A program made the translations under genes and the position numbers. A DNA stretch of 64,000 bases from a bacterium (lineage in GTDB: Bacteria > Electryoneota > JAOADG01), in NCBI GenBank assembly GCA_963681965.1, contig OY820579.1, positions 1,440,001 to 1,504,000 of the forward strand, written 5' to 3'. Positions 41,159 through 64,000 of the stretch are shown piece after piece (the stretch's first letter is position 1; each line of letters begins with the position of its first letter). The notes under the pieces are model-generated. The model was not told where the DNA came from and searched no databases. It worked only from the letters and a program-made list of their open reading frames with translations.

Positions 41159-41478
41159 AGATTGCGATGTTGCAGGATTTTTTTTCGAAGCTGCCGTATC
41201 TCTCGCAATTAAATGCCAAACATGCGGTAGAAGCGATTGCAGCAACCGAACGGCAACTTCGCAATACCGACGAGAAAGCTCGAGTAGCTGCGCAGTTGCA
41301 GTTACAAAATTCGCAATCGTCGATTCAAACCGATACAAATCGTCGACACAGTCGAAAATGGTTTCGCTTCGGTTCCCATGACAACAAACAAGAAGATGAG
41401 TCAACTGCATCCACCGAGCAATCGGCTACCGAACAACCAAACACTCAGAAAGGTGGAAAGGTAGACCGTTACGCATGA
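41155..41478 (+). CDS. Hypothetical protein with C-terminal GxxVDxYA motif
   Basis: GTGA overlap with fliA and ATGA overlap with the next gene; ends KGGKVDRYA. Confidence 0.6.
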   Translation: MKIAMLQDFFSKLPYLSQLNAKHAVEAIAATERQLRNTDEKARVAAQLQLQNSQSSIQTDTNRRHSRKWFRFGSHDNKQEDESTASTEQSATEQPNTQKGGKVDRYA

Positions 41479-43000: not shown

Positions 43001-43666
43001 ATGATTGAGCCAACAAATCTGAATTATTCCGATTGGCCTCCTGGAGAAGCGCTGGGATTACGTCGGTTGGCACACGACCTAATGACTCCGATTACCGTTT
43101 TAATGGGTAATTTACAACTCTTTTTAATGCGTAAAGATTTGCCACCTCCCGTCGCTGCGAAAATAGAAGACTTGTACAAACAGGCTCAGCACCTGATGAA
43201 AATGGTCCAGGATTCATCGCAACACGCATACGACACAGTATGGTCCGGCACCAGTGGTTCGATTGCCGAACGTTGGGAAGCTGGTAAGGAAGTCGCCAGC
43301 AGCGTATTGACTCGTGCTGGAGTTGCTGTCGACATCATGCAACCAACGCCGACTGTTATTTGGAATGGTGAACCGGAAGCTTGGCGCGAGTGGATGGGTT
43401 CAGTCTTTGCATCGGTTGCCAATCGTATGGAGCGCGGTGGGAAAATCGAATTATCTGCCACTGACCGCGGATGGAAATTAACCGCTTCGCATTTGAATCT
43501 TGAATCCAATAATTTTCCGGAATGGTTAGCCAGTCTGCGAGCAGAGCAAAGTGATATCAATCTTGCCGGCTACCGACGCTACTGCGAATTATTAGTGATC
43601 AACTCTTGTATTCCACAGGTCAACTTGGAAGGAAAGAACTTGACGATCGAGTACAATCTCGGCTAG
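43001..43666 (+). CDS. Degenerate histidine-kinase-like protein (HisKA, no intact ATP-binding boxes)
   Basis: H-box LAHDLMTPITVLMGNLQL and a remnant N-box ANRMERGGKIEL; no DxGxG or GxGLG. Confidence 0.65.
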   Translation: MIEPTNLNYSDWPPGEALGLRRLAHDLMTPITVLMGNLQLFLMRKDLPPPVAAKIEDLYKQAQHLMKMVQDSSQHAYDTVWSGTSGSIAERWEAGKEVASSVLTRAGVAVDIMQPTPTVIWNGEPEAWREWMGSVFASVANRMERGGKIELSATDRGWKLTASHLNLESNNFPEWLASLRAEQSDINLAGYRRYCELLVINSCIPQVNLEGKNLTIEYNLG

Positions 43667-47804: not shown

Positions 47805-47812
47805 GTCGTGCC

Positions 47813-48559
47813 ATGACAGCAATACCCTCGAAATTCGATAAAACTGAAATCGCACCGCTGACCGCTGCGAAGCATGTTCAGACTACTGCTGACCGGAAAA
47901 AAGCCGAGCAAGTCGCCAAGCAATTCGAAGCGGTTCTGGTGGCGACGATGGTGCGCGAGATGCGTCAGGGAACAGAGTTGTTTGGATCAAGCGATCCTTC
48001 GGCAAAAATGTTCGACACCATGTTCGATGAAGCATTGGCGACCCAGATGGGAAGTACTGGCAATGGTTTCGGTATCCGCAAAATGGTGCTGGATGCACTG
48101 GATCGCACGCAACACAAATTTGAGCCGACCAAAGACTTTAAGCCGGGTGTGAAGCAATGGGATCCGATGATCGAAAAAATCGCTACGGAAGAGGGTGTCG
48201 ATCCTAATCTGGTGCGCGCAGTGATGGAACGCGAATCCGGTGGTCATCAGACTGCGAGATCGCGTGCCGGTGCTTGCGGTTTGATGCAGTTAATGCCGGA
48301 TACCGCCCGGTCGCTGGGTGTCAAACAGATTTTCGATCCCGAACAAAACCTGCGCGGCGGCGTCAAGTATCTCAAAGAACAAATCGATCGCTTCGGTCGC
48401 GTCGATCTGGCACTGGCAGCCTACAATGCCGGACCAAATGCGGTTGAGCGACACCGCGGTATACCACCTTTCAGCGAAACACGAAGTTATGTGAGTAGTA
48501 TCATGAACCGACTCCAAAGTACCCTACTACCAACTCGAGAGGAGGACGCAAATGACTGA
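47813..48559 (+). CDS. flgJ: FlgJ: rod-binding domain fused to a soluble lytic transglycosylase domain
   Basis: AKQFEAVLV..MVREMR (rod-binding) followed by AVMERES, GLMQLMP, ALAAYNAG and ETRSYV (SLT). Confidence 0.88.
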   Translation: MTAIPSKFDKTEIAPLTAAKHVQTTADRKKAEQVAKQFEAVLVATMVREMRQGTELFGSSDPSAKMFDTMFDEALATQMGSTGNGFGIRKMVLDALDRTQHKFEPTKDFKPGVKQWDPMIEKIATEEGVDPNLVRAVMERESGGHQTARSRAGACGLMQLMPDTARSLGVKQIFDPEQNLRGGVKYLKEQIDRFGRVDLALAAYNAGPNAVERHRGIPPFSETRSYVSSIMNRLQSTLLPTREEDAND

Positions 48560-49052
48560 GCAGATTAAGGAATTAATCGAGTTGATTCGTTCCGAAGAAA
48601 ACCTGATGCAGGATTTCTTAACCGTTCTTGATCGCCAGAAAGTACTGTTACTCGAAAATCGACACGAAGAATTCGAAATGACGGTAACCGAACAGGAACG
48701 CTTATTAACCTCCATTCAACATCTCGAACAGAAGCGGATCGAAGTAATCGTAATGATTGCGAGTGGTCTGAAGATCGAAGGTGAAGAACTCACACTGGCA
48801 CGCTTGATCGAGATGACGCTGGGTGAATTCGACGAGGAATTGCGCGAATTAAAACGATCGCTGAATCGCTTGGTCGATCGCATTCGTAAAGCAAATCAGG
48901 TCAATGCGCATCTGGTTCATCGCTCGTTGAATTATCTCCAGAAATCGGTTACGTGGTTGATCGATTCCGGCGACTTAAGCGTGACTTATTCTCAAGCCGG
49001 TGAAATGAATCAATCGGCAGTCGGTGCCGTGTTGTTGAACAAGAAACTGTAG
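48552..49052 (+). CDS. flgN: Flagellar export chaperone FlgN
   Basis: Helical protein immediately before flgK; N..N..L motif (ANQVNAHLV) and C-terminal TY. Confidence 0.88.
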   Translation: MTEQIKELIELIRSEENLMQDFLTVLDRQKVLLLENRHEEFEMTVTEQERLLTSIQHLEQKRIEVIVMIASGLKIEGEELTLARLIEMTLGEFDEELRELKRSLNRLVDRIRKANQVNAHLVHRSLNYLQKSVTWLIDSGDLSVTYSQAGEMNQSAVGAVLLNKKL

Positions 49053-49060
49053 GAGCCTAA

Positions 49061-50416
49061 ATGCCGTCGCTATTGTCTGCACTGCTGTCAGCACGCTCCG
49101 CATTATTGTCGAATCAGTCGAGTATGGCTGTCATTTCGCACAATATGTCGAATGCGAATACCGATGGCTATACCCGTCAATCGGCGGAAATGGTGGCAAT
49201 GGCTGGCATCGGCGATGCCAATGCCGCATACGGATTTGGTGTTGATGTCGCTTCGGTGACGCGGTCGCGAAACGATTATATCGATCGAAGCTTGCGTTCC
49301 GAACAAGGCGAATTAAGTCGCAACGAATATCTGCACGATCAATTATCGCAACTATCGCAAGCGATCGGTGATCCGACCGAAGGCGATTTTGTTACTTCGA
49401 TCAATGAATTCTGGTCGAGTTGGCAGGATTTGGCGAATGCGCCGGAATCGATTGCTGCCCGTGCTTCGGTACAAACCGCCGGTCAGGAAATGTGTGGTGA
49501 ATTTCAGCGCATTGCATTAACGATCGATGACTTGTCTTCCAATGCAAATTCGACGATTGATTCCGCAGTAACGAACGTTAATCAAATTTCGGCATCATTA
49601 GTCGAGCTGAATCGACAAATCGCTCGCGAGACATCGCAAAGTCGGCAACCCAACGACTTGATGGATCAGCGCGATAAACTTCTCGATCAACTTGCCAAAC
49701 TTGGCAATGTTTCAACTTCGACCGGCACCAATGGTGCATTTCGGGTACAATTCGGCGATACGATCCTCGTCGAAGGTGAGAGCGCTATTCAATTGCGCTC
49801 GACTCAATTAGCTGGCAAAACCGTCGTGATGTGGGAAGGCGGCGATCGGGAAGTAAAGCTCTCCTCCGGACAAGTTGCAGGTGCGTGCGATACATCGAAA
49901 CAGCTAAACGATTGGCGAGCAAACCTAGATACAATTGCGAAAACCATCGCCGACAAAGTGAATGAAATTCACCGGGTTGGTCGCGGTCTCGATGGATCGA
50001 CCGGAGTCAATTTCTTTGCTGCTAATATTACCAGCGCCGATCAAATGCGGCTAGATCCTTCGGTTCTTACTAGCGTCAATCGGATCGCTGGTTCAGGTGC
50101 CCAAGGGACAGGCGACGGTTTGACCGCGCGTGCTATCGGTAAACTATCAACGCTCTCGATCATCGATGGCAAAACTGTATCGGCATCCATTTCAGGTTTC
50201 ATCGGTACAGTCGGAACGGTAACGGCAAAAGCGGAAAACGATCGCGCGCAAGCCGAGGCGGGTGTTCAGCAAATGGATACCTGGCAAAAGTCAGTTTCGG
50301 GTGTAAATGTTGATGAAGAATTGATGAATATGATGAAATATCAACAATCGTTTGCGGCAGCAGGAAAAGTGTATACCATCGTGAATTCGATGATGGATAC
50401 TATCCTCAAATTATAG
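49061..50416 (+). CDS. flgK: Hook-associated protein FlgK
   Basis: HNMSNANTDGYTRQ, NDLMDQRD and SGVNVDEE...YQQSF.A. Confidence 0.95.
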   Translation: MPSLLSALLSARSALLSNQSSMAVISHNMSNANTDGYTRQSAEMVAMAGIGDANAAYGFGVDVASVTRSRNDYIDRSLRSEQGELSRNEYLHDQLSQLSQAIGDPTEGDFVTSINEFWSSWQDLANAPESIAARASVQTAGQEMCGEFQRIALTIDDLSSNANSTIDSAVTNVNQISASLVELNRQIARETSQSRQPNDLMDQRDKLLDQLAKLGNVSTSTGTNGAFRVQFGDTILVEGESAIQLRSTQLAGKTVVMWEGGDREVKLSSGQVAGACDTSKQLNDWRANLDTIAKTIADKVNEIHRVGRGLDGSTGVNFFAANITSADQMRLDPSVLTSVNRIAGSGAQGTGDGLTARAIGKLSTLSIIDGKTVSASISGFIGTVGTVTAKAENDRAQAEAGVQQMDTWQKSVSGVNVDEELMNMMKYQQSFAAAGKVYTIVNSMMDTILKL

Positions 50417-51349
50417 GTGATGACAATGCGAATTACCCAATTATCGCTTTATCAGCAACAGATGTATGAGAATCGAAAGCAGTACGCCAACCTGGCGGAA
50501 TCGCAACTCGGTTCAACTACCGGTACACGAGTCAACACCGCCGAGGACGATCCGAATAATGCAGCGCAATTGGTTCGATTGGCGACCGATAAAGAGCGTA
50601 GTAAACAATATCAGCGGAATATTCAGGATGGTCTGGATCGATTGCAGACGACCGATAATGCCTTGTCGCGTATCGATCAAATACTTACCTCGGCACGTGC
50701 TAAAGCTGTTTCCGGAGGTACCGATTCGATTACCGACGATGATCGTCAGAAGATTGCAACCGATTTGGATCAAATTCTAAATGATCTAGTTGCAACCGTC
50801 AATCAGCAATCGGATGGACGATACCTGTTTGGTGGCGCCACCAACGATAAACCCCCACTACAGATCACGAAAGCCGATGACGGTACGATAACGCAGATTA
50901 CCATGAATTGGGAGGAGATCGCTACCCCGGTGTTGCGCGATATTGGCGACGGTGAGGAAGTGTCGGTGACTGCTAGCCCACTGATGTTTCGATCGGACGA
51001 TTCGGGAACTGCTCCCGATGTATTCACGGAATTAATTCGGTTGCGCGACGATTTACGCGGGAACGGCACAACGACACAAGTTACCACTCACTTGGATGCC
51101 ATCGATAAATACCGCGCGAAAGTAAACGGAACGCAAGCTCAAGTTGGTGAATGGGTTAATCAACTCAATGCCGCCGATATCCGGTGGAAAGATCGCGATC
51201 TGCGCATTACCGATCAAACGAGTAAACTGCAGGATTGGGATACCGCTGAAATCATTATGAAGTACAAACAGGCGGAAACTTCATATTCCAGTTCGCTGCA
51301 GATGACGTCGCAGATCTTCAATTTGTCGTTGTTGAAATATCTTTCCTAG
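50417..51349 (+). CDS. flgL: Hook-associated protein FlgL
   Basis: MRIT, TGTRV...DDP, GRYLFGG and SLLKYL. Confidence 0.93.
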   Translation: MMTMRITQLSLYQQQMYENRKQYANLAESQLGSTTGTRVNTAEDDPNNAAQLVRLATDKERSKQYQRNIQDGLDRLQTTDNALSRIDQILTSARAKAVSGGTDSITDDDRQKIATDLDQILNDLVATVNQQSDGRYLFGGATNDKPPLQITKADDGTITQITMNWEEIATPVLRDIGDGEEVSVTASPLMFRSDDSGTAPDVFTELIRLRDDLRGNGTTTQVTTHLDAIDKYRAKVNGTQAQVGEWVNQLNAADIRWKDRDLRITDQTSKLQDWDTAEIIMKYKQAETSYSSSLQMTSQIFNLSLLKYLS

Positions 51350-51370
51350 CTAGTTGACTAAGGAATCCAT

Positions 51371-53059
51371 ATGCGTGCTCCGGATATCTCGATATTAATT
51401 GCCACCTATAATCGGAAAGATCTCGTACAGGCGTGTCTGGATCGAGTATTCGAACTGGCACCCACTGAACCACCGTTCGAAGTCATTGTGGTTGATAATG
51501 CTTCGACCGATGGAACGGCAGAAATGTTGGAAGCATACCCAAATCCGATTGTATTGGTTCGGAATTCGGTGAATCGCAATTTTTCCGGGGCAAACAATCA
51601 GGCTGCCGAGTTAGCTCGGGGCGATTGGTTGGTCATGTTAAATGCCGACACTTTGCCCGAAGCGGGCTGGTTACAGGCACTTTTAGCCGAAGCGAAACTT
51701 GATCCGAAAATTGGGGTGACAGGCTGCAAGTTGCTCTACCCAGAAGATCGTACAGTACAACATGCCGGAGTGGCAATCGGAGAGCAAAACCATCCGTTCC
51801 ATATTTACCGCAAAGCGCAGGAAGACTCCCCGATCATTAATCATCGCCGGGAATTGCAATCAGTGACTGCCGCGTGTTGGATTGTACCGACGAAATTGTA
51901 TCGCGAGTTGGGGGGATTTGACGAACGATATGTGAATGGCTTCGAAGATGTCGATTTTTGCTTCCGGGTTCGTGAAGCCGGTTTGAAAGTCTTTTACACT
52001 CATTTGGCGACGGTGTTGCATTTCGAAGGGGCGTCTCCGGGAAGAAACAGCAATAACGGTGATAACTGGCAGATCTTTCGCGATCGATGGGAGGGAAAAT
52101 ATTTCCCCGACATCTTGATGATTTATGCGCGAGACGGTCTCCGCGCGATCCCAATCAAATTCAATACCGTACGTCTTATTTCCGACACAGCCCAGCGACA
52201 ATTCGAGATCAACTATGTTTGGGATCTGATTAATCACCAGCAATACGAACTTGCAGCTCAGCAATTACAAATAGTTAAGGAAAAATACCCCGATGAATTT
52301 AATGTTCGGGAATTCGAAATCAAGTTGTTGATTGCAACTGGGCATCTAGTAGAAGCGATTGATTTAGCTGAAATGCAAAGTGCATCGCTACCGATCTGGT
52401 ATCATGCCAAACGCACCATCACACTGGCTAAACGTGCCGGTCAACTGGAGCGTGCTACTCATTTACTCACCGCTTGGGAAACAAAGCTCGAAGAGGATGA
52501 AGATCGAGCCGAATGGTGGGCGTTGCGAGGTGATGTATTTGCCAAACAAAGCGATTGGGTATCAGCCGGTGAGTGTTATCAAAATGCTGCACAACTGCGC
52601 CCGACACTGGAAGAAGTTATGGTCGGGAAAGCGAATATCTTGTTGGCTCAATCGAAGGCTCCCGAGGCTGAATATGCGTATCTGGAAACGATCCATCGAC
52701 ACTGGGAATCGAGCCGGGCACACCTCGGATTGGCACTGAGTTTGCTTATGCAAGGTAGGAAGCACGAGGCATTGGATGCATTTGTTGCATCCCGGAGATA
52801 CGATCCTACCGACTTGAACTGCACACTGTATCTGGTCTCGTTAGCACAAGAACTAGGGCAGTTGACTCTTGCAGAGAAAACTCTGCAAGACGCGCTGAAG
52901 CGAATGCCAAATCATACCGAATTAATGCTGTTTCTGGGTTCGACTAAAGCCAGCGCAGGGGATCGCGACGGCGCTAAAGACATATCGAAGAAAATATTGA
53001 AAATAAACCCGGGTGATCAAGGCGCGAAGAAATTGTTGGCATGGGCGGAATCGTCGTGA
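51371..53059 (+). CDS. GT2 family glycosyltransferase with C-terminal TPR repeats
   Basis: VIVVDNASTDGT, LNADT and GGFDERY..GFEDVDFC; TPR repeats in the C-terminal half. Confidence 0.9.
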   Translation: MRAPDISILIATYNRKDLVQACLDRVFELAPTEPPFEVIVVDNASTDGTAEMLEAYPNPIVLVRNSVNRNFSGANNQAAELARGDWLVMLNADTLPEAGWLQALLAEAKLDPKIGVTGCKLLYPEDRTVQHAGVAIGEQNHPFHIYRKAQEDSPIINHRRELQSVTAACWIVPTKLYRELGGFDERYVNGFEDVDFCFRVREAGLKVFYTHLATVLHFEGASPGRNSNNGDNWQIFRDRWEGKYFPDILMIYARDGLRAIPIKFNTVRLISDTAQRQFEINYVWDLINHQQYELAAQQLQIVKEKYPDEFNVREFEIKLLIATGHLVEAIDLAEMQSASLPIWYHAKRTITLAKRAGQLERATHLLTAWETKLEEDEDRAEWWALRGDVFAKQSDWVSAGECYQNAAQLRPTLEEVMVGKANILLAQSKAPEAEYAYLETIHRHWESSRAHLGLALSLLMQGRKHEALDAFVASRRYDPTDLNCTLYLVSLAQELGQLTLAEKTLQDALKRMPNHTELMLFLGSTKASAGDRDGAKDISKKILKINPGDQGAKKLLAWAESS

Positions 53060-54363
53060 ATATAGGCGTTTTACAGTTGGCAAGAATGGGCGATTGGGTG
53101 CAGACGATGCCTCTAGTCGCCAATTTGCGCTCAAAATATCCCGATGCGAATATTACACCTATTTGCGATCGTCGCGTCTCAGATCTGGTTACGGAAATCA
53201 CGGATACAACTCCGATCGCGTTACCGATTCCCGAGCGGATGCTGGCTCGTGACGTACCGGCGATGCTTTATTCCATGCTTCATCGATTTTTAGCCGAAGT
53301 TCCGCAATTCGATCTGATCATTCGCTGTAACGATACTCCATTGGCGCGATTATGGCAGCATATCCTTGAAAATCCGTTTCGACAAAATACTCAAGATGCG
53401 AATCTTCGTACCGTTCGTTCGGAAGCTTTGATTCGAATTTTACCGTTGATTGATTCCCGGTTACGACTCCACATCAGTGACCTCTGGCGCTGGCGTGTTG
53501 CCGATTCTCAGACAATTCCACGATCGCATTGGAATGATACCGTTCGACAGATCGCTATCGCAGTCGGTTCCGGTGGTGTGGAACGTGCTTGGGGTGAGGA
53601 TCGATTGCTTCGCACCATCCAGATTGCCAGTGATTCAGCGCCAGTAACACTAATCGGAAGCGAATCGGAACAGGATTTTGCCGGAAATATCGCGCGCCAA
53701 ATCGATCTGAATCGAAATGTTACCAATAAAGTTGGATGCTGGTCGATAAAAACTTTGAATAGTTGGTTAAGTCAGACGGGCGTTGTGTGTGTTGCATTGG
53801 ATACCGGATCACTGCACTTGGCAGCGCTATCGGGAGCAGCAACTTTTGGATGTTATGAGGGTGAAGCGGTTCCCGAAACGACTGGTGCCGTCGGATCTTG
53901 CAGTGCTGGGGTCGAAAACGAAGCATCGATTCCGATCGATCAATGGGAAATAAGCTTACGACGATTCCTGGTTGCTCCGAATCAATTTCTTCCAGAGAAT
54001 GACAGCGAATTTGTGATGGAACAAACCGACCGAATTCGAGTTCTTCGGGCAACATCACTAACTGAAACAGAAATAAAAATTGTCAACTGGTTAATCGACT
54101 TTGTGCACTGTAAAAGTAACTGCACAATGCGCGACTTGCGAGATCCGTGGCGATCGCTCGAGCAGTGGTTGACGAATTGGGAAAACCGATCGAATGAACC
54201 GGGTTGGGAGTTTAAAGAAGTCGTTCCGGAATCACAATTTGAGCACATTTTAACTGCACTCCATTGGTCGGTATTGGAAAGTATCAATCGACCACCTTCA
54301 CTTTTCCAGCGCTCGTCAAATAAACAAGAGGATCGACATGCGTCCGTCGCACTGGCACGTTGA
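53056..54363 (+). CDS. GT9 (heptosyltransferase-like) glycosyltransferase, divergent
   Basis: QLARMGD N-terminal motif and DTGSLHLAA. Confidence 0.75.
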   Translation: MNIGVLQLARMGDWVQTMPLVANLRSKYPDANITPICDRRVSDLVTEITDTTPIALPIPERMLARDVPAMLYSMLHRFLAEVPQFDLIIRCNDTPLARLWQHILENPFRQNTQDANLRTVRSEALIRILPLIDSRLRLHISDLWRWRVADSQTIPRSHWNDTVRQIAIAVGSGGVERAWGEDRLLRTIQIASDSAPVTLIGSESEQDFAGNIARQIDLNRNVTNKVGCWSIKTLNSWLSQTGVVCVALDTGSLHLAALSGAATFGCYEGEAVPETTGAVGSCSAGVENEASIPIDQWEISLRRFLVAPNQFLPENDSEFVMEQTDRIRVLRATSLTETEIKIVNWLIDFVHCKSNCTMRDLRDPWRSLEQWLTNWENRSNEPGWEFKEVVPESQFEHILTALHWSVLESINRPPSLFQRSSNKQEDRHASVALAR

Positions 54364-56068
54364 AAAAATCGTTGCGTCGGATGGCAATGTAACCGTTCGG
54401 GTGAACGGCAAATTACTGCATAGTAAAGTCGCTCCATTGCGTGAAGCGGATAAATGGGCATCGCAACAACCGGAAGCACCAGCGTATGCGATTGTCGGTG
54501 CTGGGATGGGGTGGGGTGTTCAGGCGCTTCTCAAACGCTTTCCCACTTCGAAAATTGTTGTCCTCGAACCTGTTCCCGGATTAATACCGGATCTCCAGTC
54601 GCAGTTTAATGGTTATAACGGGTCCATTCGAATCGTCTCACTTGCTAATCGAATCAATGCGTCAGTCGCCCTTTCGTCGATCCAGCAACATCTTGGATCC
54701 GACTATCGCATCGTCGAGGGATATCCGAATGCTGCCGAGTGGGATAATAGCGGTATTGTCGATCGATTGCGATTTCGATCGAAACTATCGCAACAACCGC
54801 CTCGGGTATTGGTTGTTACCCCAATTTACGGAGGTTCGTATCCGATTGCGCAGTATTGTGTGAATGGACTGCGAATGCTCGGTTGCACTGTCGAATTACT
54901 CGATAATGCACATCTTGACCCAGCACGGCAGGAAATTGATACAATCACCGACCGACCCGACCATAAACAGCAATTGACTGGAATACTGGTTTCGTTTGCT
55001 GCAGAACGAATCGCCGCGAAAGCTGCTGCCATGAAAGCCGACTTAGTATTGGCGTTGGCACAAGCTCCGGTAACATCTCGGGTTTGGGATGAGTTGCGAA
55101 ATGCGGGTGTAGCTACAGCATTCTGGTTTGTCGAAGATCATCGATTGTTTCCCTACGGATCGAATATTGCCCCACGCGTCGATGCATTCTTTCCAATTCA
55201 ATGCGATGAATGGACCGATGAACTATCAAAGCAGGGTGCACACCTCCATTACTTACCACTTGCTGCAGACGAATCGATACACAGTGAAGTTGAATTGAAC
55301 GAATTCGAACGCGGACGATTTGGTTCCGATCTATCGTTTGTTGGTGCTGGATACTATAATCGCCGGAATGCGTTTCTCACGTTTATCGATCAGAATATGA
55401 AAATTTGGGGTGATGGGTGGCGGAGTGCCGACGGTTTATCACGGTTGGTGCAAGAGGATGGACGACGAATCTCGACCGAAGAATCGATTAAAATCTTCTC
55501 AGCATCGAAGGTGAATATCAATCTTCATTCCAGTACTTACTATCAGGATGTCAGTCCGGATGGCGATTTTGTCAATCCCCGAACGTTCGAAATAGCCGCT
55601 TGTCGCGCCTTTCAAGTAATTGACGAACGCTCGCTATTACCGGAGTTGTTTTCACCCGAAGAAATGCCGACAGCCGGCACCCTTGATCAATTCCGAATGC
55701 AAGTTAATTCGGCACTAGCTGATTCTGGTTATCGACAACAAACCACCGAACTCGCTTATAACCGAGTTGTTGCCGACCATCTATACACCCACCGGATGGA
55801 AGAATTACTGGGCTATGTCTTTCGAAACCGTTCTCCACTGAGCCACTCCGCAATGGGTCAAGTGTCGGTTGAGAAATGGATCGAGGAAGCTGGAGACGAT
55901 CCCGATCTCGTCGAATATCTTACGCGATTTCGCGATCGAAAGCGATTGACGTTATCCGAAATTGCCGAAGAAATTGAATCGCGACGAGAACGTTTGTCTT
56001 CTACAGAATCGGTTTTCTTATTGATGAATGAATTTTACAAGTGGGGAAAAGAGCACGGTGTTATTTAG
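54338..56068 (+). CDS. CgeB/DUF3880-like GT-B glycosyltransferase with Maf-like N-terminal segment
   Basis: LHSKVAPLREA..G.G.G, PIYGGSYP, FWFVED, SFVGAGYYNR, NPRTFEIAAC and HLYTHRM. Confidence 0.8.
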   Translation: MRPSHWHVEKIVASDGNVTVRVNGKLLHSKVAPLREADKWASQQPEAPAYAIVGAGMGWGVQALLKRFPTSKIVVLEPVPGLIPDLQSQFNGYNGSIRIVSLANRINASVALSSIQQHLGSDYRIVEGYPNAAEWDNSGIVDRLRFRSKLSQQPPRVLVVTPIYGGSYPIAQYCVNGLRMLGCTVELLDNAHLDPARQEIDTITDRPDHKQQLTGILVSFAAERIAAKAAAMKADLVLALAQAPVTSRVWDELRNAGVATAFWFVEDHRLFPYGSNIAPRVDAFFPIQCDEWTDELSKQGAHLHYLPLAADESIHSEVELNEFERGRFGSDLSFVGAGYYNRRNAFLTFIDQNMKIWGDGWRSADGLSRLVQEDGRRISTEESIKIFSASKVNINLHSSTYYQDVSPDGDFVNPRTFEIAACRAFQVIDERSLLPELFSPEEMPTAGTLDQFRMQVNSALADSGYRQQTTELAYNRVVADHLYTHRMEELLGYVFRNRSPLSHSAMGQVSVEKWIEEAGDDPDLVEYLTRFRDRKRLTLSEIAEEIESRRERLSSTESVFLLMNEFYKWGKEHGVI

Positions 56069-56077
56069 GAGGAATCG

Positions 56078-57355
56078 ATGGAACCGTTGATTGGTATTGT
56101 AATGCTTACGCATAACCGGCTACCGATGTTGAAAATCGCGTTGCCGTCCATGTTGCGCTCCTTGACGCTTCCTGCCGAAGTGATCATTGTCGACAATGCA
56201 TCAACCGACGGAACTGGCGAATTTTTGAAGCGTTTTCAAGCGCGCTACTCCTTGCCGAATGTGTTTTCGTTACGAGTTGATCGCTTACCCGAAAATATCG
56301 GAACAGCCGCCTATAATCACGCGATGAAAGATTTAACGGCTCCGGTATTGATTGAGGTTGATGATGATGTGGTGCAATTTCCCAATGAATGGGATCGAAA
56401 ACTTGTTGACGCATTGATTCACGGCGATCGCATTGGATATGTCTCTACCGATGTCGTGAAAGACGATTGGACCGATGGAAATCGAGCGGATGGTATAACC
56501 TTTGGCACAACCTTCGAACAGCTACCCGATGGCGGTAAGTTGGAAATTGGGGTTGTGGGCGGTTGGTGTGCTGCGACTCCGCGAACGCTGTTTCAAGCAC
56601 TGGGTGGATTCCCAATGCGTGGTGCGGGGCTGTTTGAATTGGAAGATGGTGCTTACGCAAATCTATTGTTTCAATACGGGATGCGATTTGCAATCCATAC
56701 CGATGTTAAAGTATATCACGCCAGTGGTCCGAAGATCGCTAAGGCGATGGGATTGTGGCAAACCTGGTTTGCCAAATACGATCCCGAAGTCGATCCCGCC
56801 TATGCCGACATGCGACTGTTTGGTGAAGCGCAATCAGGCGACGGTGAATTACCAGAGATTCTGCAAATTGACGAATCAGTCAATGACTTAATTCATCTGT
56901 TGCGTCAAGAAGAACGGATGTTGTTGCGATTTGTCGGAATACTTGATCGACAAAAACTGCTTCTGTTCGAACATCGGTACGCCGAGTTCGAAGATTCAGT
57001 TTCTGAGCAGGAAGCGTTGTTGGTGCAATTAAATCGCGTGGAATCGGAACGTAAACGAACGATCCTTAAAATTGCAGAAGCACTTCATATCGGTCACGAA
57101 GAGACAACGTTAAACGATCTTATCTCATCGACGATGGGTCAATTCGAAGAAGAGTGGAGCGAAGCAAGGCGGTTACTTCATCGTATTTCCGAACGATTAA
57201 CGCGAATTGTGAGTGACAGTTCGGTGAAGACTACCAATTCCGTTCAGAATTGGAAGGAATCGATTTCATCATTAATTGCTGTGCGAAGATCGAAAGCGCG
57301 TACGACGCCAGTATTTCAATTACCCAATGATCCCGATTTGGGTATAGCAATTTGA
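56078..57355 (+). CDS. GT2 glycosyltransferase fused to a C-terminal FlgN-like domain
   Basis: N-terminal LTHNR, IIVDNASTDGT, VDDD and GGF...ED. Residues ~266-374 align without gaps to the FlgN of this window. Confidence 0.88.
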   Translation: MEPLIGIVMLTHNRLPMLKIALPSMLRSLTLPAEVIIVDNASTDGTGEFLKRFQARYSLPNVFSLRVDRLPENIGTAAYNHAMKDLTAPVLIEVDDDVVQFPNEWDRKLVDALIHGDRIGYVSTDVVKDDWTDGNRADGITFGTTFEQLPDGGKLEIGVVGGWCAATPRTLFQALGGFPMRGAGLFELEDGAYANLLFQYGMRFAIHTDVKVYHASGPKIAKAMGLWQTWFAKYDPEVDPAYADMRLFGEAQSGDGELPEILQIDESVNDLIHLLRQEERMLLRFVGILDRQKLLLFEHRYAEFEDSVSEQEALLVQLNRVESERKRTILKIAEALHIGHEETTLNDLISSTMGQFEEEWSEARRLLHRISERLTRIVSDSSVKTTNSVQNWKESISSLIAVRRSKARTTPVFQLPNDPDLGIAI

Positions 57356-57365
57356 GTGTCTGTAA

Positions 57366-59084
57366 ATGAGCCCGATAATTTCACCCAGTCATGCGACAAG
57401 GCATTACCGAAAAGTATTGGTAGTGTCGTGGAATCGTATGGGCGATATGCTCCAGTTGACACCGATATTCGAGTCGTTTAAAAAGTACTCGCCGGAAACT
57501 GAACTGCATCTGACCGTTTCACATAAATTCGAGGACGTTGCAAAGCTGATTGGTGGGGTTTCGAAAATAATTCCCTTCAATTTGAACTGCGTTCTCGAGC
57601 AAGTTCGCAGTACCGATCATACAATTCAATTGCATCGGATGCTAACGAAATTTGTCGATGAATTGCGATGTGAGCAGTACGATTTAGTCTTGAATGTGAC
57701 GCACAACCGGTTAACTGCCCTTTTTATGCATCTGCTGGGTGTTCCCGAAAGTCGGGGACTACTCTACGACGATCACGGATATCGCGCGGTGCGAGATCCC
57801 TGGAGTCGCTTCTTTTTTATTGCCGATCTGATTCGCGGACAAAGTCGGATCAATTTGGTTGAAATACAACTCGGAATTGCCGGATTTCACCCCGACCGAC
57901 CGATGCGAATCGAAATTCCCGAAGAAGTACAACATCGAATTGATGCTGAAATACTTAGCTGGTCGATTGCTACCGACAAGATCGTAGCGATTCAAATTGG
58001 TGCATCGCTGCCGAACAAAGAATGGAATCACGCATCATTTGCCGAAATTGCCCGACGACTTGTAGCGAATGGATTTACACCGATCTGGGTGGGTGCACCA
58101 TCGGAATTGGAAAAGATTGAATCGGTTGCGATGAATGTTCCGGGATCGATCAATCTTGCCGGTAAAACCTCTGTTGCCGAATTAGCCGCAATAATGAAAC
58201 GATGCCGGTTGTTGTTAACGAACGATACCGGAACGATGCATGTTGGTGTGTGTGTTGGAACGCCGATCATCTCGCTGAATGTGGGTACACCACTGTCGCA
58301 TGAGACCGGACCGTATCAAGCGGGATCGACAGTGATTGAACCGAAGATCTCTTGTTATCCGTGCAGTTTTCACGTCGAATGTCCCCACTATCGTTGTCAT
58401 GATGAAGTCGATGTCGATTCCGTCTGGTCGGAAGTAGCTAAATCGCTTGAGATCGCAGTGGATTATGCAATATCAGATCGTGTCCGAGTATGGCGAACAG
58501 CATTCGATGAAAATGGTTTCTGGGAACTTCGTCGCATCAAACCTGAAGCTGCAACTGCCGACGAATTGGCTGCCGTGATGTGGGCTGAGATCTGGAAACG
58601 ATTTCTTGCACACCGACCGATTGAGAAGTCATTGATAGAAGCCATTCAACTGCGCTTCGCTCGCGAATACACGAACGATTCGATAGCACCCGCTTTCGCC
58701 AATTTGTCGGAACGGATGAGCCATCTATCGAAAATGGTTTCGATTGCCCGAAGTGGAATCCAGATTGCCGAAGCATTACGGCGATTGGATCCGATTCGCG
58801 ATGTCGCGAGAATCGTCGAATTGGGTAAACAACTTGAATCAATCGAACAGAATCTTCAACTGGTGGGATTAGTGCACCATATCTGGCGTCCGCTGTTTGC
58901 AATTTTTGTCTTTGGAAAAGACGCGATGGTTGGCGATTCGATCGATGTGTTGGCGAAACAGACAAGTGAATTGTTTCAAGATTTCGTTACTATTGGCGAA
59001 ACGATGCTCGATCAGTCTACGAATTTTTCAAAGCGGTACAGCCGTCCTTTCGATGAACCGGTGCACGTATGCCTTCCGCAATAA
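57366..59084 (+). CDS. GT9 (heptosyltransferase-like) glycosyltransferase
   Basis: RMGDMLQLTP, QIGAS..KEW, NLAGKTS, TNDTGTMH and CYPC...C...C. Confidence 0.88.
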   Translation: MSPIISPSHATRHYRKVLVVSWNRMGDMLQLTPIFESFKKYSPETELHLTVSHKFEDVAKLIGGVSKIIPFNLNCVLEQVRSTDHTIQLHRMLTKFVDELRCEQYDLVLNVTHNRLTALFMHLLGVPESRGLLYDDHGYRAVRDPWSRFFFIADLIRGQSRINLVEIQLGIAGFHPDRPMRIEIPEEVQHRIDAEILSWSIATDKIVAIQIGASLPNKEWNHASFAEIARRLVANGFTPIWVGAPSELEKIESVAMNVPGSINLAGKTSVAELAAIMKRCRLLLTNDTGTMHVGVCVGTPIISLNVGTPLSHETGPYQAGSTVIEPKISCYPCSFHVECPHYRCHDEVDVDSVWSEVAKSLEIAVDYAISDRVRVWRTAFDENGFWELRRIKPEAATADELAAVMWAEIWKRFLAHRPIEKSLIEAIQLRFAREYTNDSIAPAFANLSERMSHLSKMVSIARSGIQIAEALRRLDPIRDVARIVELGKQLESIEQNLQLVGLVHHIWRPLFAIFVFGKDAMVGDSIDVLAKQTSELFQDFVTIGETMLDQSTNFSKRYSRPFDEPVHVCLPQ

Positions 59085-60658
59085 TTACCTGTGTCGAATC
59101 GGCGAAAAGCGGAGATTTAACCGCTTATTGGAAGACGCCCTCCGGTGGAAAGCGATATCTTCATAGTCGCGTCGATCCAATCCACGAAGCGCATCAGATT
59201 GCCGCATCGCTTGATTGTTCGTTTAAAGAAGAATTGGTAATCGAGGGGATCGGACTGGGTTATTTGGTCGAGATACTACTAGAAGAAAATCCACAATTGA
59301 TAAAAGTCGAACTCTATGATCCCGATCCCGCTATTACTGAAATTTTGAAACTATTTCGACCAAAAACATCGCTTTTATCCGATCCGAGAATTATCTGGCA
59401 TTCTGGTGAGCAACCTTCGGTAACAGTCAATTACCGGTCACCGGCGGTTTTGGGACTGCAATACAAGGATTCGAAAACGACCCAATCGAGAGTAATGTAT
59501 CCTCGATCGCACCGACCTACGGTTATTTATCTCAAATCGGGATACTTCATTGAACGAGAATTGCTCGCAGCATTGGCTGCCGAAGGTATTCGCACTTTCG
59601 CATTGGATTACAAAGAGGGACACAGCTTTATCGAGCAGTTACTGGAGATTGCGCTCCATGAGCATCCGGATTTTTTATTGACGGTAAATCATTTTGGATT
59701 CGATTGCAACGGCGAACTAATCCGGCTGCTTGAGAAAATCAATTTGCCGGTAGCAAGCTGGTTTGTCGATTCACCGAGTTACATCTTATTGAATCACACC
59801 GAAAATCGGTCCGGGTTGGTGACCCCGTTTCTCTGGGAAGAAGCGTATGCCGAGCGGTTAAAGGGATGGTTCGATACCCCCGTTTGGCTCCCCTTGGCGG
59901 GTGATGAAACCCGATTGGTGAAAGACATACAATTCCATGAACAACCGGGTATTTTTGTCGGAGATAGTCAACTGGTAGCCGCTGCCGGATGGCGGAAGAT
60001 GTTGCCTACCGATTCGATTTGGGATATGCGAATCGAAACCGGTGTTCAAGCGATTCGGAGTTACCGACAACCTGTGTGGAATGTAACGGACTCGATCAGG
60101 TGTTCGAACCTAAAAGAACAACTCGATCTCGAGTCGGCAATCGTATTGGAAGCAACGCGACGTCAGCGGTGGGAAGGCGTGAAGGATCTTTCTGATGCGG
60201 TAGCATTGACCGTGGTTGGTGACGAAGGATGGTTGAAAGTACCCGGCAATATTTCGATCCACAACACAGTCGATTTCTACGAGACGCTCCCGGAGTGGTA
60301 TGCTAATGCAGCCTTTGTGGTTAACTGGACTAGTTATCAAATGCCGACTGCGGTTAATCAGCGGATTTTCGATGTACCGCTGTGTGGTGGCTATCTAGTG
60401 ACTGATTCACAGACTGATCTAAGTCGGTTGTTTTCACCTGAATCGTACCCAGTATTCAATCATTCGGGTGAGTTAGTTGGATTGGTACAATGGTTGCTCA
60501 GGAATCAAGCAGCAGCGGAGACGCTGCGTCGAAAACAGGTCGAGCAGATTCTAAGTAATCACACCTACCGGCATCGCATTCGATCACTGTTACGAACAAT
60601 GAGTACAAAAAGATCGCACTCTACAACTGTATCTCATTGGGAAACCGTTGGTATTTAG
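59069..60658 (+). CDS. CgeB/DUF3880-like glycosyltransferase with Maf-like N-terminal segment
   Basis: YLHSRVDP..EA, GIGLGY, NHFGFD, SWFVDSP, NQRIFDVP and HTYRHR. Confidence 0.8.
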   Translation: MPSAIITCVESAKSGDLTAYWKTPSGGKRYLHSRVDPIHEAHQIAASLDCSFKEELVIEGIGLGYLVEILLEENPQLIKVELYDPDPAITEILKLFRPKTSLLSDPRIIWHSGEQPSVTVNYRSPAVLGLQYKDSKTTQSRVMYPRSHRPTVIYLKSGYFIERELLAALAAEGIRTFALDYKEGHSFIEQLLEIALHEHPDFLLTVNHFGFDCNGELIRLLEKINLPVASWFVDSPSYILLNHTENRSGLVTPFLWEEAYAERLKGWFDTPVWLPLAGDETRLVKDIQFHEQPGIFVGDSQLVAAAGWRKMLPTDSIWDMRIETGVQAIRSYRQPVWNVTDSIRCSNLKEQLDLESAIVLEATRRQRWEGVKDLSDAVALTVVGDEGWLKVPGNISIHNTVDFYETLPEWYANAAFVVNWTSYQMPTAVNQRIFDVPLCGGYLVTDSQTDLSRLFSPESYPVFNHSGELVGLVQWLLRNQAAAETLRRKQVEQILSNHTYRHRIRSLLRTMSTKRSHSTTVSHWETVGI

Positions 60659-60678
60659 AAGCATGAAAAGAGGAAAAT

Positions 60679-61317
60679 ATGAAAATCAGCGTTGACAATC
60701 AGCTTCGTCAAATCAATCTCGATCCCTCGATACAACTCCGAGTGGGCATCAAAGAATTGGTGGATAGCCTGACTGAATCGCGGAGACGGGTTGTTCGAAT
60801 TGTCGTCGATGACGTAGAGATCACCGGAAAATTCGATCACGAGAAGTACGATTTGTCGTTTTCGGATGTCGAGAAAATCGAATTGTTCACCGCCGATCCA
60901 TTTGTATTAGCACTCGATTCAATTCCGATGCTGCAAGACTTTATCATGAAAATGAAGCTTGAAATCGGGTCAGCGACTGAATGGTATCGCTTTGGAAGAG
61001 TTGATGAAGCCAGCAATTCAATGGCTCGAATCGCCGATGGATTGACATTGATCACTCACACGATTGAACGACTTCGCAGCTTGTTAGAGCTTGATTTTTC
61101 TTGTCTGATTTTCAATGAGAAACCGATTCTGGATCATTATTCGAAACTTGCCGAAATGATCGAAGAGTTGATCGGTGCTCAAAATGAAACGGATTGGATT
61201 CTCGTAGCCGATCTGCTCGAGTATGAATTACTGCCTGTAATTGAGGACTGGGATGGTATCCTCGGTCTGTTGTCGCAAAAAGGATCGGAACTGCTCAATG
61301 TCGCAGCAATTGCTTGA
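60679..61317 (+). CDS. Hypothetical protein of the flagellin glycosylation region
   Basis: GAGG RBS; AQ...DWILVADLLEYEL.P motif of the kind seen near flagellin loci. Confidence 0.7.
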   Translation: MKISVDNQLRQINLDPSIQLRVGIKELVDSLTESRRRVVRIVVDDVEITGKFDHEKYDLSFSDVEKIELFTADPFVLALDSIPMLQDFIMKMKLEIGSATEWYRFGRVDEASNSMARIADGLTLITHTIERLRSLLELDFSCLIFNEKPILDHYSKLAEMIEELIGAQNETDWILVADLLEYELLPVIEDWDGILGLLSQKGSELLNVAAIA

Positions 61318-61603
61318 ACAGCAGTATGAAGCTCTGACTGATCAACTGTTGTTAGCCGCTAGAGCAGCCGACTGGAATCTGTGTGCTCATCTTCTCGAGG
61401 AGCGCGAGCGATTGATTCCATTGAAATTGTTAAACAATCGCTTAAAGGTAATTCAATCGGATCAGGCGATTCTCACTCTTCTAGAGAACGAAAAAAACAC
61501 AATCGGTAAGCGAATATCGTGTCTAAACCGCGGATATTCATTAATTGATCGGTACTTGTCAGGATCGGTGATGAATGGACGGCGCTTCATGGTTGAAGGT
61601 TAG
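61298..61603 (+). CDS. FliT-like small helical protein
   Basis: LT...L.A....DW.....LLEERE.LI pattern; overlaps the upstream gene. Confidence 0.5.
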   Translation: MSQQLLEQQYEALTDQLLLAARAADWNLCAHLLEERERLIPLKLLNNRLKVIQSDQAILTLLENEKNTIGKRISCLNRGYSLIDRYLSGSVMNGRRFMVEG

Positions 61604-61736
61604 TTGTAATCTTACTTGAAGAAACGGATAGGTAAGTTAGTGAATAAAGGTTATTCAAAGAGTGGAATTACTTTACAGAATTGAATCGATAATTTCAGAG
61701 AAACACTATAAGTATTTATAAATCAATATATTACTG

Positions 61737-61764
61737 TAAAGTTTGGTTCTCCTCCTGTCGAAGG
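61737..61764 (+). promoter_or_regulatory. Candidate sigma28 promoter of flagellin
   Basis: TAAAGTTT-N12-GTCGAAGG versus consensus TAAAGTTT-N11-GCCGATAA; preceded by an AT-rich tract. Confidence 0.6.
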
Positions 61765-61801
61765 GATTGGTGAAGAGGGGTCACCACCCGAGGAGGAGAA
61801 A

Positions 61802-62632
61802 ATGAGTACCCGTATTAATCATAATATTCTTTCCCTGACAGGTCAGAGGAATATTTATGCAACTCAGAAGTCATTAGACACTGCAATCAATCGCTTGTCG
61901 AGTGGCTTACGTATTAACAATGCCTGGGACGATCCAGCAGGTTTGGCAGTATCCGAGCGTTTCCGTGCTCAAATCTCTTCAATGGACGAAGCAGAGAAGA
62001 ACATGGAATATGGCACGAATCTGTTGTCGACGGCTGAAGGTTCGTTGTTGATCCGCATCCGCATGCGATCGTTGTCAGTTCAAGCCTCGAATGGCACATT
62101 GACTGGTAACGACCGAGCAGCACTTGACGTTGAGTTCCAACAGCTCAAGAGCGAAATCACTCGTATCGCCAATGTGACGAATTATAACGGTCTCTATTTG
62201 CTGAACGGAACGTATTCCGGTTCAGGTCAAAACGGCATCAAGCTGCATATCGGTACGAATAATGTCCAGAATCAGGACTATTATCACGTGTCGATGGGTA
62301 ACATGACTGCCTCGGCGCTCGGTCTGAGCGCGACGAACGTGTTGGACACCGTTGCCAGCCAGGCTGCGATCGACACTTTGGATACGGCAATCAATTCGAA
62401 GGATACAGAGCGAACTCGTCTCGGTTCCTACGTCAGCCGTCTCCAGAATTCGATCACGAATATCCAGATCGCCCATGAAAACGCTGTTGCGTCCGAATCG
62501 CAAATCCGCGATGCCGACATTGCCGAAGAAATGTCTAGCTTTGTTCGCGCGCAGATTTTAATGCAGACTGGCATCTCGATGCTGGCTCAGGCGAATCAGA
62601 CACCACAGCAAGTAGCGCAGTTGGTGGGATAA
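61802..62632 (+). CDS. fliC: Flagellin (short, D0-D1 type)
   Basis: RINHN, RLSSGLRIN.A.DD.AGLA and ESQIRDADIAEEM...MLAQAN; strong AGGAGG RBS. Confidence 0.97.
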   Translation: MSTRINHNILSLTGQRNIYATQKSLDTAINRLSSGLRINNAWDDPAGLAVSERFRAQISSMDEAEKNMEYGTNLLSTAEGSLLIRIRMRSLSVQASNGTLTGNDRAALDVEFQQLKSEITRIANVTNYNGLYLLNGTYSGSGQNGIKLHIGTNNVQNQDYYHVSMGNMTASALGLSATNVLDTVASQAAIDTLDTAINSKDTERTRLGSYVSRLQNSITNIQIAHENAVASESQIRDADIAEEMSSFVRAQILMQTGISMLAQANQTPQQVAQLVG

Positions 62633-62647
62633 CACCCAATCGCATTT

Positions 62648-62711
62648 GACCGGAGGGGCGCGGTGCGGTAGGGTGGCGCGGATTACGCGAGGCTCTGCCG
62701 CACCTCCGGTC
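62648..62711 (+). other. Large GC-rich stem-loop in the flagellin 3' region
   Basis: GACCGGAGG/CCTCCGGTC and GGTGCGGTAGGGT/GCTCTGCCGCACC pairings. Confidence 0.55.
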
Positions 62712-62851
62712 TGATTACCGGAGTTGCGGCTTTTGGAAACAGTCTTTCGGCAGTTCGGAAGTACGTGTAATGTTACACGTACGATTTTTCGCAACTGGTC
62801 CGAGTCTTGATACTAATCAAGGGAAAGATTGTATCGGGTTCCGGAGGTCGT

Positions 62852-64000
62852 ATGGCAATACAAAATATGTCCGGCATTTCGTCCGGGTACGATTGGCAAA
62901 AGCTGATCGATTTACAGATTCAACAAAAATCTATTCATCTTAACAATCTCCAACAGACTAAGTCGGATGATTCGTCCAAACTCACCCTTTGGAACTCAAT
63001 CGAAGGGGCAATGGGTTCGCTGAAATCGTCTGCCGATGCAATTGCCAAATCTTCCGGGTTCATAGCAAAATTTACCACCTCCAGCGACTCCGATAAAGTT
63101 GCACTGGATGCTTCCGACACAGCCGTAAACGGAAATCACTCGATCCTGATCAATCAATTGGCTAGAAATAACGTGCAAATGCATGCCGGATGGATCGATA
63201 GCGATACTACAGCGATTAACACTAGTGGATCCGATCAAGTATTCAGCTATTCTTACAAAGACATTACTCGTAATATCACGATTCCCAATGGCACGACACT
63301 CGAAGGGCTGGTGGGATTGATCAATTCGGATTCGGCATCGGTCGTATTGGATGAAGAAGAGACTGAAACCAATAAGAACCTTGGTATTTCGGCGTCGATT
63401 GTAAACGATGGAACCGGAGGAGCAACAGCCTATCACCTTGTCTTATCTGGAAATAATACCGGAGGCGAGTATTCGATTACGATCAACGATGGTGCAACGA
63501 CACTGGGGGGAGCGGGGTGGCAAACCTCGGGATTTACTGTAACGCAGACATCGCAAAATTCAAAGTTTCGATTAGATGGAATTCCTCCGGGATCATGGAT
63601 CGAATCGATCACGAACGATGTCTCGGATGCTGTACCCGGTTTAACTTTTCATTTGAAAGCAGTTACCACGGAAACTGATCCGGTTTATCTGACAGTGGCA
63701 CAAGATGACGGTACAATCAAAAATCGAATAAAAAACTTTGTTGAAGCCTATAATACCGTCGTCCAGCAACTTAGAAACTTGTCGTCGTATGATACCGAGA
63801 ATAAAAAAGCGGCTGCTTTATTCGGCGATGCAAATATCTCTTCGATCAAAGCGGAATTGAATTTTCTTGTTTCAAGCACATTTCCGGGAATTCCGGGGGG
63901 GTCGAATTATACAAGCTTGACGGCGATCGGAATTTCGCCCAATACTGACGGGGATTTGGAAATTGACAACAAGAAGTTATCGGATGCATTGACCAGAGAC
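62852..64000 (+). CDS. fliD: Flagellar filament cap protein FliD (partial, runs off the window end)
   Basis: Manual translation MAIQNMSGISSGYDWQKLID..., INQLA, SASIVNDGTG, TSQNSKFRLDG and FVEAYN; GGAGG RBS; no stop seen before 64000. Confidence 0.92.
   Translation, partial: MAIQNMSGISSGYDWQKLIDLQIQQKSIHLNNLQQTKSDDSSKLTLWNSIEGAMGSLKSSADAIAKSSGFIAKFTTSSDSDKVALDASDTAVNGNHSILINQLARNNVQMHAGWIDSDTTAINTSGSDQVFSYSYKDITRNITIPNGTTLEGLVGLINSDSASVVLDEEETETNKNLGISASIVNDGTGGATAYHLVLSGNNTGGEYSITINDGATTLGGAGWQTSGFTVTQTSQNSKFRLDGIPPGSWIESITNDVSDAVPGLTFHLKAVTTETDPVYLTVAQDDGTIKNRIKNFVEAYNTVVQQLRNLSSYDTENKKAAALFGDANISSIKAELNFLVSSTFPGIPGGSNYTSLTAIGISPNTDGDLEIDNKKLSDALTRD

Follow-up and report, generated by a model that had tools for sequence, protein, structure and literature searches.

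Within a 64,000-nucleotide stretch of contig OY820579.1 from a bacterium of the phylum Electryoneota (positions 1,440,001 to 1,504,000, assembly GCA_963681965.1; the whole stretch is referred to hereafter as the window), we identified a gene whose product joins a glycosyltransferase family 2 (GT2) enzyme to a C-terminal copy of the flagellar export chaperone FlgN. The GT2-FlgN fusion is real and rare, being found in one lineage, and its tail is a true FlgN paralog that is missing the C-terminal tyrosine region. What is new here is the nature of the module, which is a demonstrable FlgN paralog, covalently fused, and carried on a GT2 enzyme. We favor, at a probability of about 0.5, a reading in which the protein would act as a lineage-specific accessory flagellar glycosyltransferase, its FlgN-derived part serving in cis for acceptor recognition or as an adaptor.

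A preliminary description of the window, made from the sequence by eye, had proposed a GT2 domain and a FlgN paralog in one gene and had counted about 49 gapless identities in 109 positions over 56873-57199. BLASTP closely reproduces this count, aligning fused residues 266-376 with residues 3-113 of the window's own FlgN at 49/111 identities (44%; 74/111 positives, 0 gaps, E 2e-26). The Pfam FlgN family (PF05130) matches residues 268-373 at 32.4 bits, above its curated cut-off of 30.5, and the same part of the fusion scores 35.2 bits in a six-frame search across the whole genome. Comparison by hhalign of the tail with a profile built from 15 stand-alone FlgNs only (no fused tails) gives a probability of 99.5% (E 3.7e-23, 140 columns); a profile that includes the tails picks out, by sequence, FlgN-family chains of known structure (3opc_A, 8.3e-10; 5b3d_A, 5.7e-4), and a single-sequence phmmer search of the tail against PDB sequences returned chance-level matches only. 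All six invariant or nearly invariant FlgN columns (L8, E15, E59, R62, T81, and L82) are kept in the window tail, where they correspond to tail positions L14, E22, E65, R68, T87, and L88.

The whole-protein AlphaFold2 model of the fusion (mean predicted local distance difference test score, pLDDT, 88.4; predicted template modeling score, pTM, 0.84) consists of a mixed alpha/beta domain to about residue 251, with pLDDT mostly 90-98 over residues 1-250, followed by predicted helices at 260-297, 301-335, 345-352, 357-379, and 387-400, and by predicted disorder from residue 404 (pLDDT <50 at 404-406 and 408-425). Modeled alone, the tail reaches a pLDDT of 80.6, with most helices at ~85-95. A VIA-align search with this model ranks FlgN of Pseudomonas aeruginosa (PA3352, chain 2fup_A) first among 48,161 PDB chains (rmsd, the root-mean-square deviation, 2.6 Å over 117/128 residues), at a Z of 12.8 that exceeds those of unrelated helical bundles (STAT1 11.6, Sso2 11.3) by only ~1 Z unit and is of a size that helical models easily attain; the structural likeness to FlgN that had been anticipated is thus recovered, with this margin. 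A Foldseek search of the tail model against the PDB gave no match at E <= 0.001.

The catalytic part is a GT2 enzyme of GT-A fold. Glycos_transf_2 (PF00535) matches residues 7-173 (E 6.6e-18, 65.6 bits against a cut-off of 23.3), and this part matches GT2-type Pfam families only, with no match of the Maf (MAF_flag10/DUF115) or FlmG type. Its top Foldseek matches in the PDB are all GT-A enzymes (E 4e-10 to 2e-8), among them the mannosyltransferase 6yv7 (E 4e-10) and ppGalNAc-transferases. Residues D95-D96-D97 are invariant in a three-sequence alignment (A2) of the window protein, its ortholog in a sister genus, and a metagenomic homolog (P0003); by the usual role of such motifs in GT-A enzymes, this DDD would be the one that binds the metal and the nucleotide sugar.

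Past FlgN residue 113, the similarity of the tail fades. Two losses reported in the preliminary description hold on alignment: the NxxN segment, NQVN in FlgN, reads SDSS in the tail, and the column of the C-terminal tyrosine, which is Y in 13/13 full-length stand-alone FlgN rows (two further stand-alone rows are truncated and gapped at that column), holds T in the tail of the window protein and is gapped in that of the sister-genus ortholog. The docking role stated there for this residue agrees with the available portions of two papers (PMC8527033, PMC5932034), according to which Tyr-122 and the C-terminal region of Salmonella FlgN bind the docking cleft of FlhA-C. Because the FlhA-docking Tyr region has been lost, it is reasonable to suppose from the alignment that the fused tail would be unable to dock at the FlhA gate. 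The tail also departs from the small stand-alone form of FlgN chaperones, in that it is the C-terminal part of a 425-residue enzyme encoded 7 kb downstream of flgN-flgK-flgL.

Over the shared core, the fusion gene and flgN are identical at 176/333 nucleotides (53%), at 36% of third codon positions, and in the codon used at 22/49 of the identical residues; such low identity marks the duplication as old, which neither repeat collapse in the assembly nor recent gene conversion would produce. A tree built from 25 FlgN and tail sequences has no resolved backbone and puts both tails at the ends of very long branches (3 and ~10 changes per column). It places the window tail outside the supported FlgN clade of families f3 and f5 (84/89), in a polytomy with the FlgNs of f1, the family of the source genome, and so does not date the duplication.

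The integrity of the reading frame was assessed against other contigs and a second genome. Two Logan contigs of 65,838 bases each, from two runs of two studies (X1 and X3), match the window throughout 55900-57500 (0 differences). One from a third run (X4) covers 56792-57287, bridging the domain junction, again with 0 differences; these runs may include the source data of the assembly. The source genome (G000) consists of a single 4.24-Mb contig with an estimated completeness of 99.91%. Independent and weightier evidence lies in G003, which represents a different genus of family f1 and carries the same GT-plus-tail gene in one open frame at the same place. The junction near 56850, which the preliminary description had wished to see verified, is thus genuine.

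Among 79 species genomes of the phylum, G000 and G003 alone give full-length matches to the fusion, whereas GT-only relatives, 32-35% identical, come from five genomes of another family. A long frame with a further match to Pfam FlgN, besides flgN, is seen in G000 alone. The fusion is missing from G001 (same genus as the source; 96% complete, 720 contigs) and G002 (family f1; 100% complete), neither of which gave a match to FlgN (PF05130) or FlhA (PF00771), so that within family f1 the gene is present only in the two genomes with flagellar genes. Flagella seemingly occur in only some members of this family. Two genomes of family f3 (G015 and G028) have a flgL-fliC island with orthologs of the GT2+TPR (tetratricopeptide repeat), GT9-like, DUF3880/GT1_2, GT9, GT1_2, and 212-residue genes listed in Table 1; there the GT9 gene directly follows the DUF3880/GT1_2 gene with no fusion gene between them, and a GT2-FlgN query of the region from flgN downstream matched their flgN only. 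Since these genomes share the island without the GT2-FlgN gene, the fusion gene is, on this comparison, an insertion specific to f1.

Wider searches returned no other clear example, although further GT-FlgN fusions may occur elsewhere in bacteria. Among 47 homologs of the whole protein, both Pfam domains occur only in the window's own protein, and P0002, which matches the G003 gene, has a degenerate tail. When the tail was scored among 401 candidate proteins of 233-744 residues, only the query itself was recovered; against 1.84 billion representatives it gave 13 matches at E <= 0.001, all of 119-173 residues and none in fused form. None of 3275 candidates of 292-2000 residues scored with the window FlgN as query, which is weak evidence as the window's own fusion was likewise not returned. 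In the ESM Atlas the whole fusion leads to GT2-only clusters and the tail to FlgN clusters at 0.80-0.81 (a lead only), and a contig scan with alignment A2 produced 131 pattern matches and no relative. In the available portions of the literature on FlgN with flagellin glycosylation and on the FlgN family (PF05130), outside supplementary files, we found no description of a GT-FlgN fusion.

The gene lies within a large flagellar cluster, in which flhF, flhG, fliA, flgF, flgG, flgA, flgH, flgI, flgJ, flgN, flgK, and flgL are annotated in the window. The order runs flgN-flgK-flgL, six glycosyltransferase-like genes, a 212-residue open reading frame (ORF), and fliC-fliD-fliS, all on one strand (Table 1). 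The island is bounded by the end of flgL at 51349 and the start of fliC at 61802, its genes being separated by tiny gaps or overlaps (~10 bases on either side of the fusion gene), and the island thus stands beside flagellin, as in flagellin glycosyltransferase systems. This position, together with the confinement within f1 to genomes with flagellar genes, upholds the flagellar role that had been proposed. The 212-residue protein has no Pfam or NCBIfam match; neither it nor the C-terminal extension of the GT9 protein shows FlgN similarity by hhalign, and none of the island genes scanned was recognized as a nonulosonic-acid gene. Promoter and terminator predictions across 47500-63000 did not outnumber those in shuffled sequence, and the one match to a sigma-28-like pattern, against 0.69 expected, lies elsewhere in the window. 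None of the runs listed as carrying the fusion gene is an RNA data set.

Table 1. Coordinates (window positions) of the GT2-FlgN fusion gene, its parts, and the genes around it
Feature	Position	Strand	Basis or remark
GT2-FlgN fusion gene	56078..57355	+	one ORF, 425 residues plus stop; internal stops 0
GT2 / GT-A catalytic domain, residues 1-257	56078..56848	+	PF00535 and Foldseek PDB matches
DDD (DxD-type) motif, residues 95-97 within EVDDDV	56360..56368	+	alignment A2
FlgN-derived helical tail, residues 258-403	56849..57286	+	BLASTP, PF05130, hhalign, VIA-align
Gapless FlgN-like core of tail, residues 266-376	56873-57205	+	BLASTP against window FlgN
Predicted disordered end, residues 404-425, lacking the FlgN Tyr motif	57287..57352	+	pLDDT, alignment
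flgN, canonical, 166 residues, paralog of the tail	48552..49052	+	PF05130 on 1-146/147, 79.7 bits
flgK, 451 residues, candidate client	49061..50416	+	FlgK_D1, E 5.1e-54
flgL, 310 residues, candidate client	50417..51349	+	Flagellin_N and Flagellin_C; directly after flgK; G003 ortholog
Island gene 1, GT2 + TPR, 562 residues	51371..53059	+	PF00535, E 2.6e-29, and several TPR families
Island gene 2, weakly GT9-like, 440 residues	53041..54363	+	NCBIfam heptosyltransferase I, E 4.2e-10 (below cut-off); Pfam GT9, E 0.11
Island gene 3, DUF3880 + Glyco_trans_1_2, 576 residues	54338..56068	+	Pfam; ends 10 bases before the fusion gene
Island gene 5, GT9 heptosyltransferase family with helical C-terminal extension of ~210 residues, 572 residues	57366..59084	+	PF01075, E 9.4e-25
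Island gene 6, Glyco_trans_1_2, 529 residues	59069..60658	+	PF13524, E 4.4e-21
Conserved island protein, family unassigned, 212 residues	60679..61317	+	orthologs at the same place in G015 and G028
fliC flagellin, 276 residues, candidate target at island end	61802..62632	+	Flagellin_N, E 1.4e-34; Flagellin_C, E 1.1e-22

Relatives of the catalytic domain bear on how the enzyme may have entered this setting. Metagenomic GT2 proteins of 260-320 residues (P0004-P0033) have the same type of catalytic domain at 30-39% identity and end without a FlgN tail; they share the EVDDDV and GGWCA motifs with the fusion, as does P0003, a 268-residue protein 60% identical in the GT domain. The neighbors of GT-only relatives, more distant ones of the phylum included, are non-flagellar at the loci read (L005, L006, and L019). 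The metagenomic contig L019 holds a near-identical copy of P0003 (L019:4543-5349) with non-flagellar genes upstream and, in the 219 bases that remain downstream of the GT gene, no FlgN-like frame. Named by eye from their translations, its upstream neighbors resemble a thioesterase, a YjbQ-type protein, and a heptose epimerase. The non-flagellar surroundings of the stand-alone relatives fit a foreign enzyme plugged into a flagellar pathway by gain of the tail, and given such an origin and a tail copied from flgN, the domain most likely links the foreign enzyme to flagellar proteins.

We therefore propose a history and a mode of action in which substrate binding, client, sugar, and timing are all inferred. 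In the simplest history, the ancestor of family f1 would already have had a flagellar glycosylation island, which received a GT2 enzyme belonging to a non-flagellar family; this enzyme would there have gained its C-terminal domain by taking on a copy of the nearby flgN, and the copy would later have lost its gate-docking end. In the present-day protein, the GT-A domain, with its DxD-type motif intact, would transfer sugar from an activated donor, and the cytoplasmic module, keeping the FlgN helical core (FlgN residues ~1-113), would hold a late export substrate by its disordered terminal segment (FlgK/FlgL in line with descent, flagellin in the event of re-specialization). The catalytic domain could then modify the held substrate before the true chaperones pass it to the gate, and the enzyme would not compete for FlhA, its gate-docking end being lost.

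Several observations weigh against this proposal, beside the narrow margin of the structural match given above. Between G000 and G003 the tail is only 27.0% identical, the lowest value in the locus, against 41-79% for all other pairs compared (FlgN 79.4%, the GT2 domain of the fusion 61.4%, FlgJ 56.8%, FlgK 55.5%, FlgL 42.2%, other island proteins 41-60%). The G003 tail carries a 13-residue deletion in the first helix region, is hardly FlgN-like (hhalign probability 12.8%, E 0.0022, 46 columns), and is not detected by Pfam FlgN at E <= 0.001. The C-terminal third is the most changed part of the tail; this part of Salmonella FlgN was reportedly found by Bennett et al. in 2001 to contribute to FlgK/FlgL binding, and if this holds, the binding of clients may have been altered or lost. 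Finally, the P0003/L019 protein ends where the tail would begin, and the existence of so close a homolog without a tail indicates that the tail is dispensable for the enzyme as such. This protein may have arisen from the fusion by truncation or may represent its pre-fusion form; its end, LPPRLQRIIA, aligns with the start of the tail, LPEILQIDES, over eight residues, too few to decide on truncation.

A reading in which the tail is a generic helical appendage (an oligomerization or scaffold stalk that would bring the enzymes of the island together) or a decaying relic without chaperone-like binding, on an enzyme that would simply add or extend a flagellin glycan sugar, draws on much the same evidence: the tail evolves faster than anything else compared in the locus and has suffered a deletion in G003, a tail-less homolog exists, neither the conserved Tyr nor the NxxN segment survives, and the whole-model pTM suggests that the tail may be packed in a fixed manner against the GT domain. 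Set against this, some 145-170 tail codons have stayed open in both genera while the catalytic domains diverged to 61%, and the window tail retains the six conserved FlgN positions and confidently predicted helices. Both tails share residues that FlgN does not have (MG.F against LG.F, LHRI against LNRL, L.RI against I.KA), which argues for one ancestral fusion whose frame was kept open in both lineages. On balance, we consider the appendage or relic explanation doubtful.

If the tail does serve as a recognition module, descent favors FlgK/FlgL as client, and the adjacency of fliC, the known precedents, and the fast evolution of the tail favor flagellin or a lineage-specific target. By analogy, flagellin would be at least as plausible a target as FlgK/FlgL, because the known systems FlmG, Maf-1, and Maf-2/GlfM all act on flagellin and fliC stands at the end of the island. 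In a complex prediction run with no controls, the tail (alignment A4, 17 rows) was paired with the C-terminal 100 residues of FlgK (A5, 2 rows); the resulting ipSAE values (interaction scores) of 0.07/0.05 and mark of 0.32 weigh neither for nor against binding. It seems to us rather unlikely that the tail still recognizes FlgK and/or FlgL and that the enzyme glycosylates the junction proteins and not flagellin. The interpretation put forward in the preliminary description, a duplicated chaperone that addresses the enzyme to FlgK/FlgL, stands as regards the fusion, the paralogy, the loss of the Tyr, and the flagellar role. The mechanism is plausible by analogy, whereas the FlgK/FlgL address itself has lost ground to the 27% tail identity and the tail-less 60% homolog.

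The tail might instead be directed at the export machine and not at a substrate, binding FliJ, FliI, or FlgN itself (as a heterodimer) and so bringing the enzyme close to the export apparatus or to FlgN-client complexes. Salmonella FlgN binds FliJ and FlhA-C, and FlgN/FlgK/FliJ complexes exist (available portion of PMC7955116); the structure of a FlgN-FliJ fusion is in the PDB (8ftx), and conservation in the tail lies in its N-terminal two thirds, the FlhA-docking region being gone. A tail that binds conserved machine parts, or a FlgN that is itself 79% identical between the genera, should however be conserved, and its actual identity is 27%; we regard targeting to the machine as improbable. 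An artefactual origin (misassembly or a sequencing error that merged two genes, or a pseudogene) has nothing in its favor and can be set aside as having next to no likelihood, given the junction spanned without differences by contigs from two studies (which may include the source), the single open frame of the G003 ortholog, the 425 stop-free codons, and the near-complete one-contig genome.

The proposed acceptor-recognition module follows a principle that has experimental backing in other enzymes, and it can be set beside several known systems. Compared with FlgN itself (PF05130; Salmonella 5b3d, P. aeruginosa PA3352 2fup), the tail has a homologous helical core, yet FlgN is a stand-alone protein of ~140-170 residues, whereas the tail is fused behind an enzyme, is without the C-terminal Tyr and NxxN, and evolves faster (27% vs 79%). 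Going by the available parts of the sources, FlmG of Caulobacter has an N-terminal flagellin-binding domain (PMC7591256), Maf-1 of Shewanella has a C-terminal TPR domain, and GlfM of Shewanella oneidensis is a small four-helix-bundle adaptor that bridges Maf-2 and flagellin and resembles FliS/FliT by HHpred (bioRxiv 10.1101/2023.12.03.569772). The idea of an address label therefore has a precedent in GlfM, a chaperone-like adaptor between enzyme and flagellin.

As far as these partial texts go, the fusion resembles GlfM in having a small, export-chaperone-like helical module, here proposed to bind the acceptor for a flagellar glycosyltransferase, within a flagellar glycosylation locus. GlfM differs in being a separate FliS/FliT-like protein of 89 residues that acts in trans on a Maf (DUF115) enzyme, whereas the module of the fusion is FlgN-derived, ~150 residues long, covalent, and on a GT2 enzyme. 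With FlmG and Maf-1, again on the available text, the fusion shares the combination of a catalytic and an acceptor-binding domain (the latter proposed here) in one cytoplasmic polypeptide encoded with flagellar genes, but their binding domains are of TPR type and their catalytic domains belong to families other than GT2. The neighboring GT2 + TPR island gene (51371-53059) comes nearer to the FlmG/Maf-1 design than the fusion gene does.

Further features of the locus were recorded in passing. Between the genera, true FlgN (79%) is far more conserved than its presumed clients FlgK (55.5%) and FlgL (42%). Between the 212-residue gene and fliC lies a FliT-like candidate, a helical 101-residue ORF (61298-61603, +) that starts at an internal ATG of a 120-residue ORF (61241-61603) and has a weak, sub-threshold Pfam FliT match (E 0.013; 16.7 bits where the cut-off is 29.5). 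The GT9 (57366-59084) and Glyco_trans_1_2 (59069-60658) genes overlap by 16 bases, and both match a single ORF of ~950-1003 residues in G015 and G028 (L020:13437-16448; L021:6067-8919) that carries GT9, DUF3880, and Glyco_trans_1_2, from which it follows that the pair was either split in the window lineage or fused in the other family. Beyond the window end, fliS is followed by a FlgM-like gene (L016:2998-3495, in G000, ~1.0 kb past the end) for a 165-residue protein with a weak FlgM match (E 1.3e-4, below cut-off), in which two similar copies of a segment RLA.G.YD....V..E.A.R.A can be seen by eye. In the fliA-flgF interval, 41475-42992 (+) encodes a 505-residue protein with a sub-threshold DUF6115 match and weak helix-turn-helix and TPR signals, and 43001-43666 (+) encodes a 221-residue protein in which only the HisKA phospho-acceptor domain, and no kinase ATPase domain, was detected.

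The finding concerns only two genera of a small phylum (79 species) and a fast-evolving tail. How cytoplasmic O-glycosyltransferases choose flagellar proteins is partly understood, either by TPR domains in cis (FlmG, Maf-1) or by a chaperone-like adaptor in trans (GlfM). If true, our proposal would add a third route, in which a type III export chaperone is directly reused as a targeting domain. As the same genome carries the parental FlgN, the two proteins offer a pair of constructs for separating the client-binding from the gate-binding surfaces of FlgN. Were the clients FlgK/FlgL, the fusion would point to glycosylation of the hook-filament junction, for which we found no report in the titles and opening lines of abstracts of the literature; an export-chaperone paralog would then have turned into a substrate-selecting domain after shedding its gate-docking residue, so leaving FlhA unblocked.

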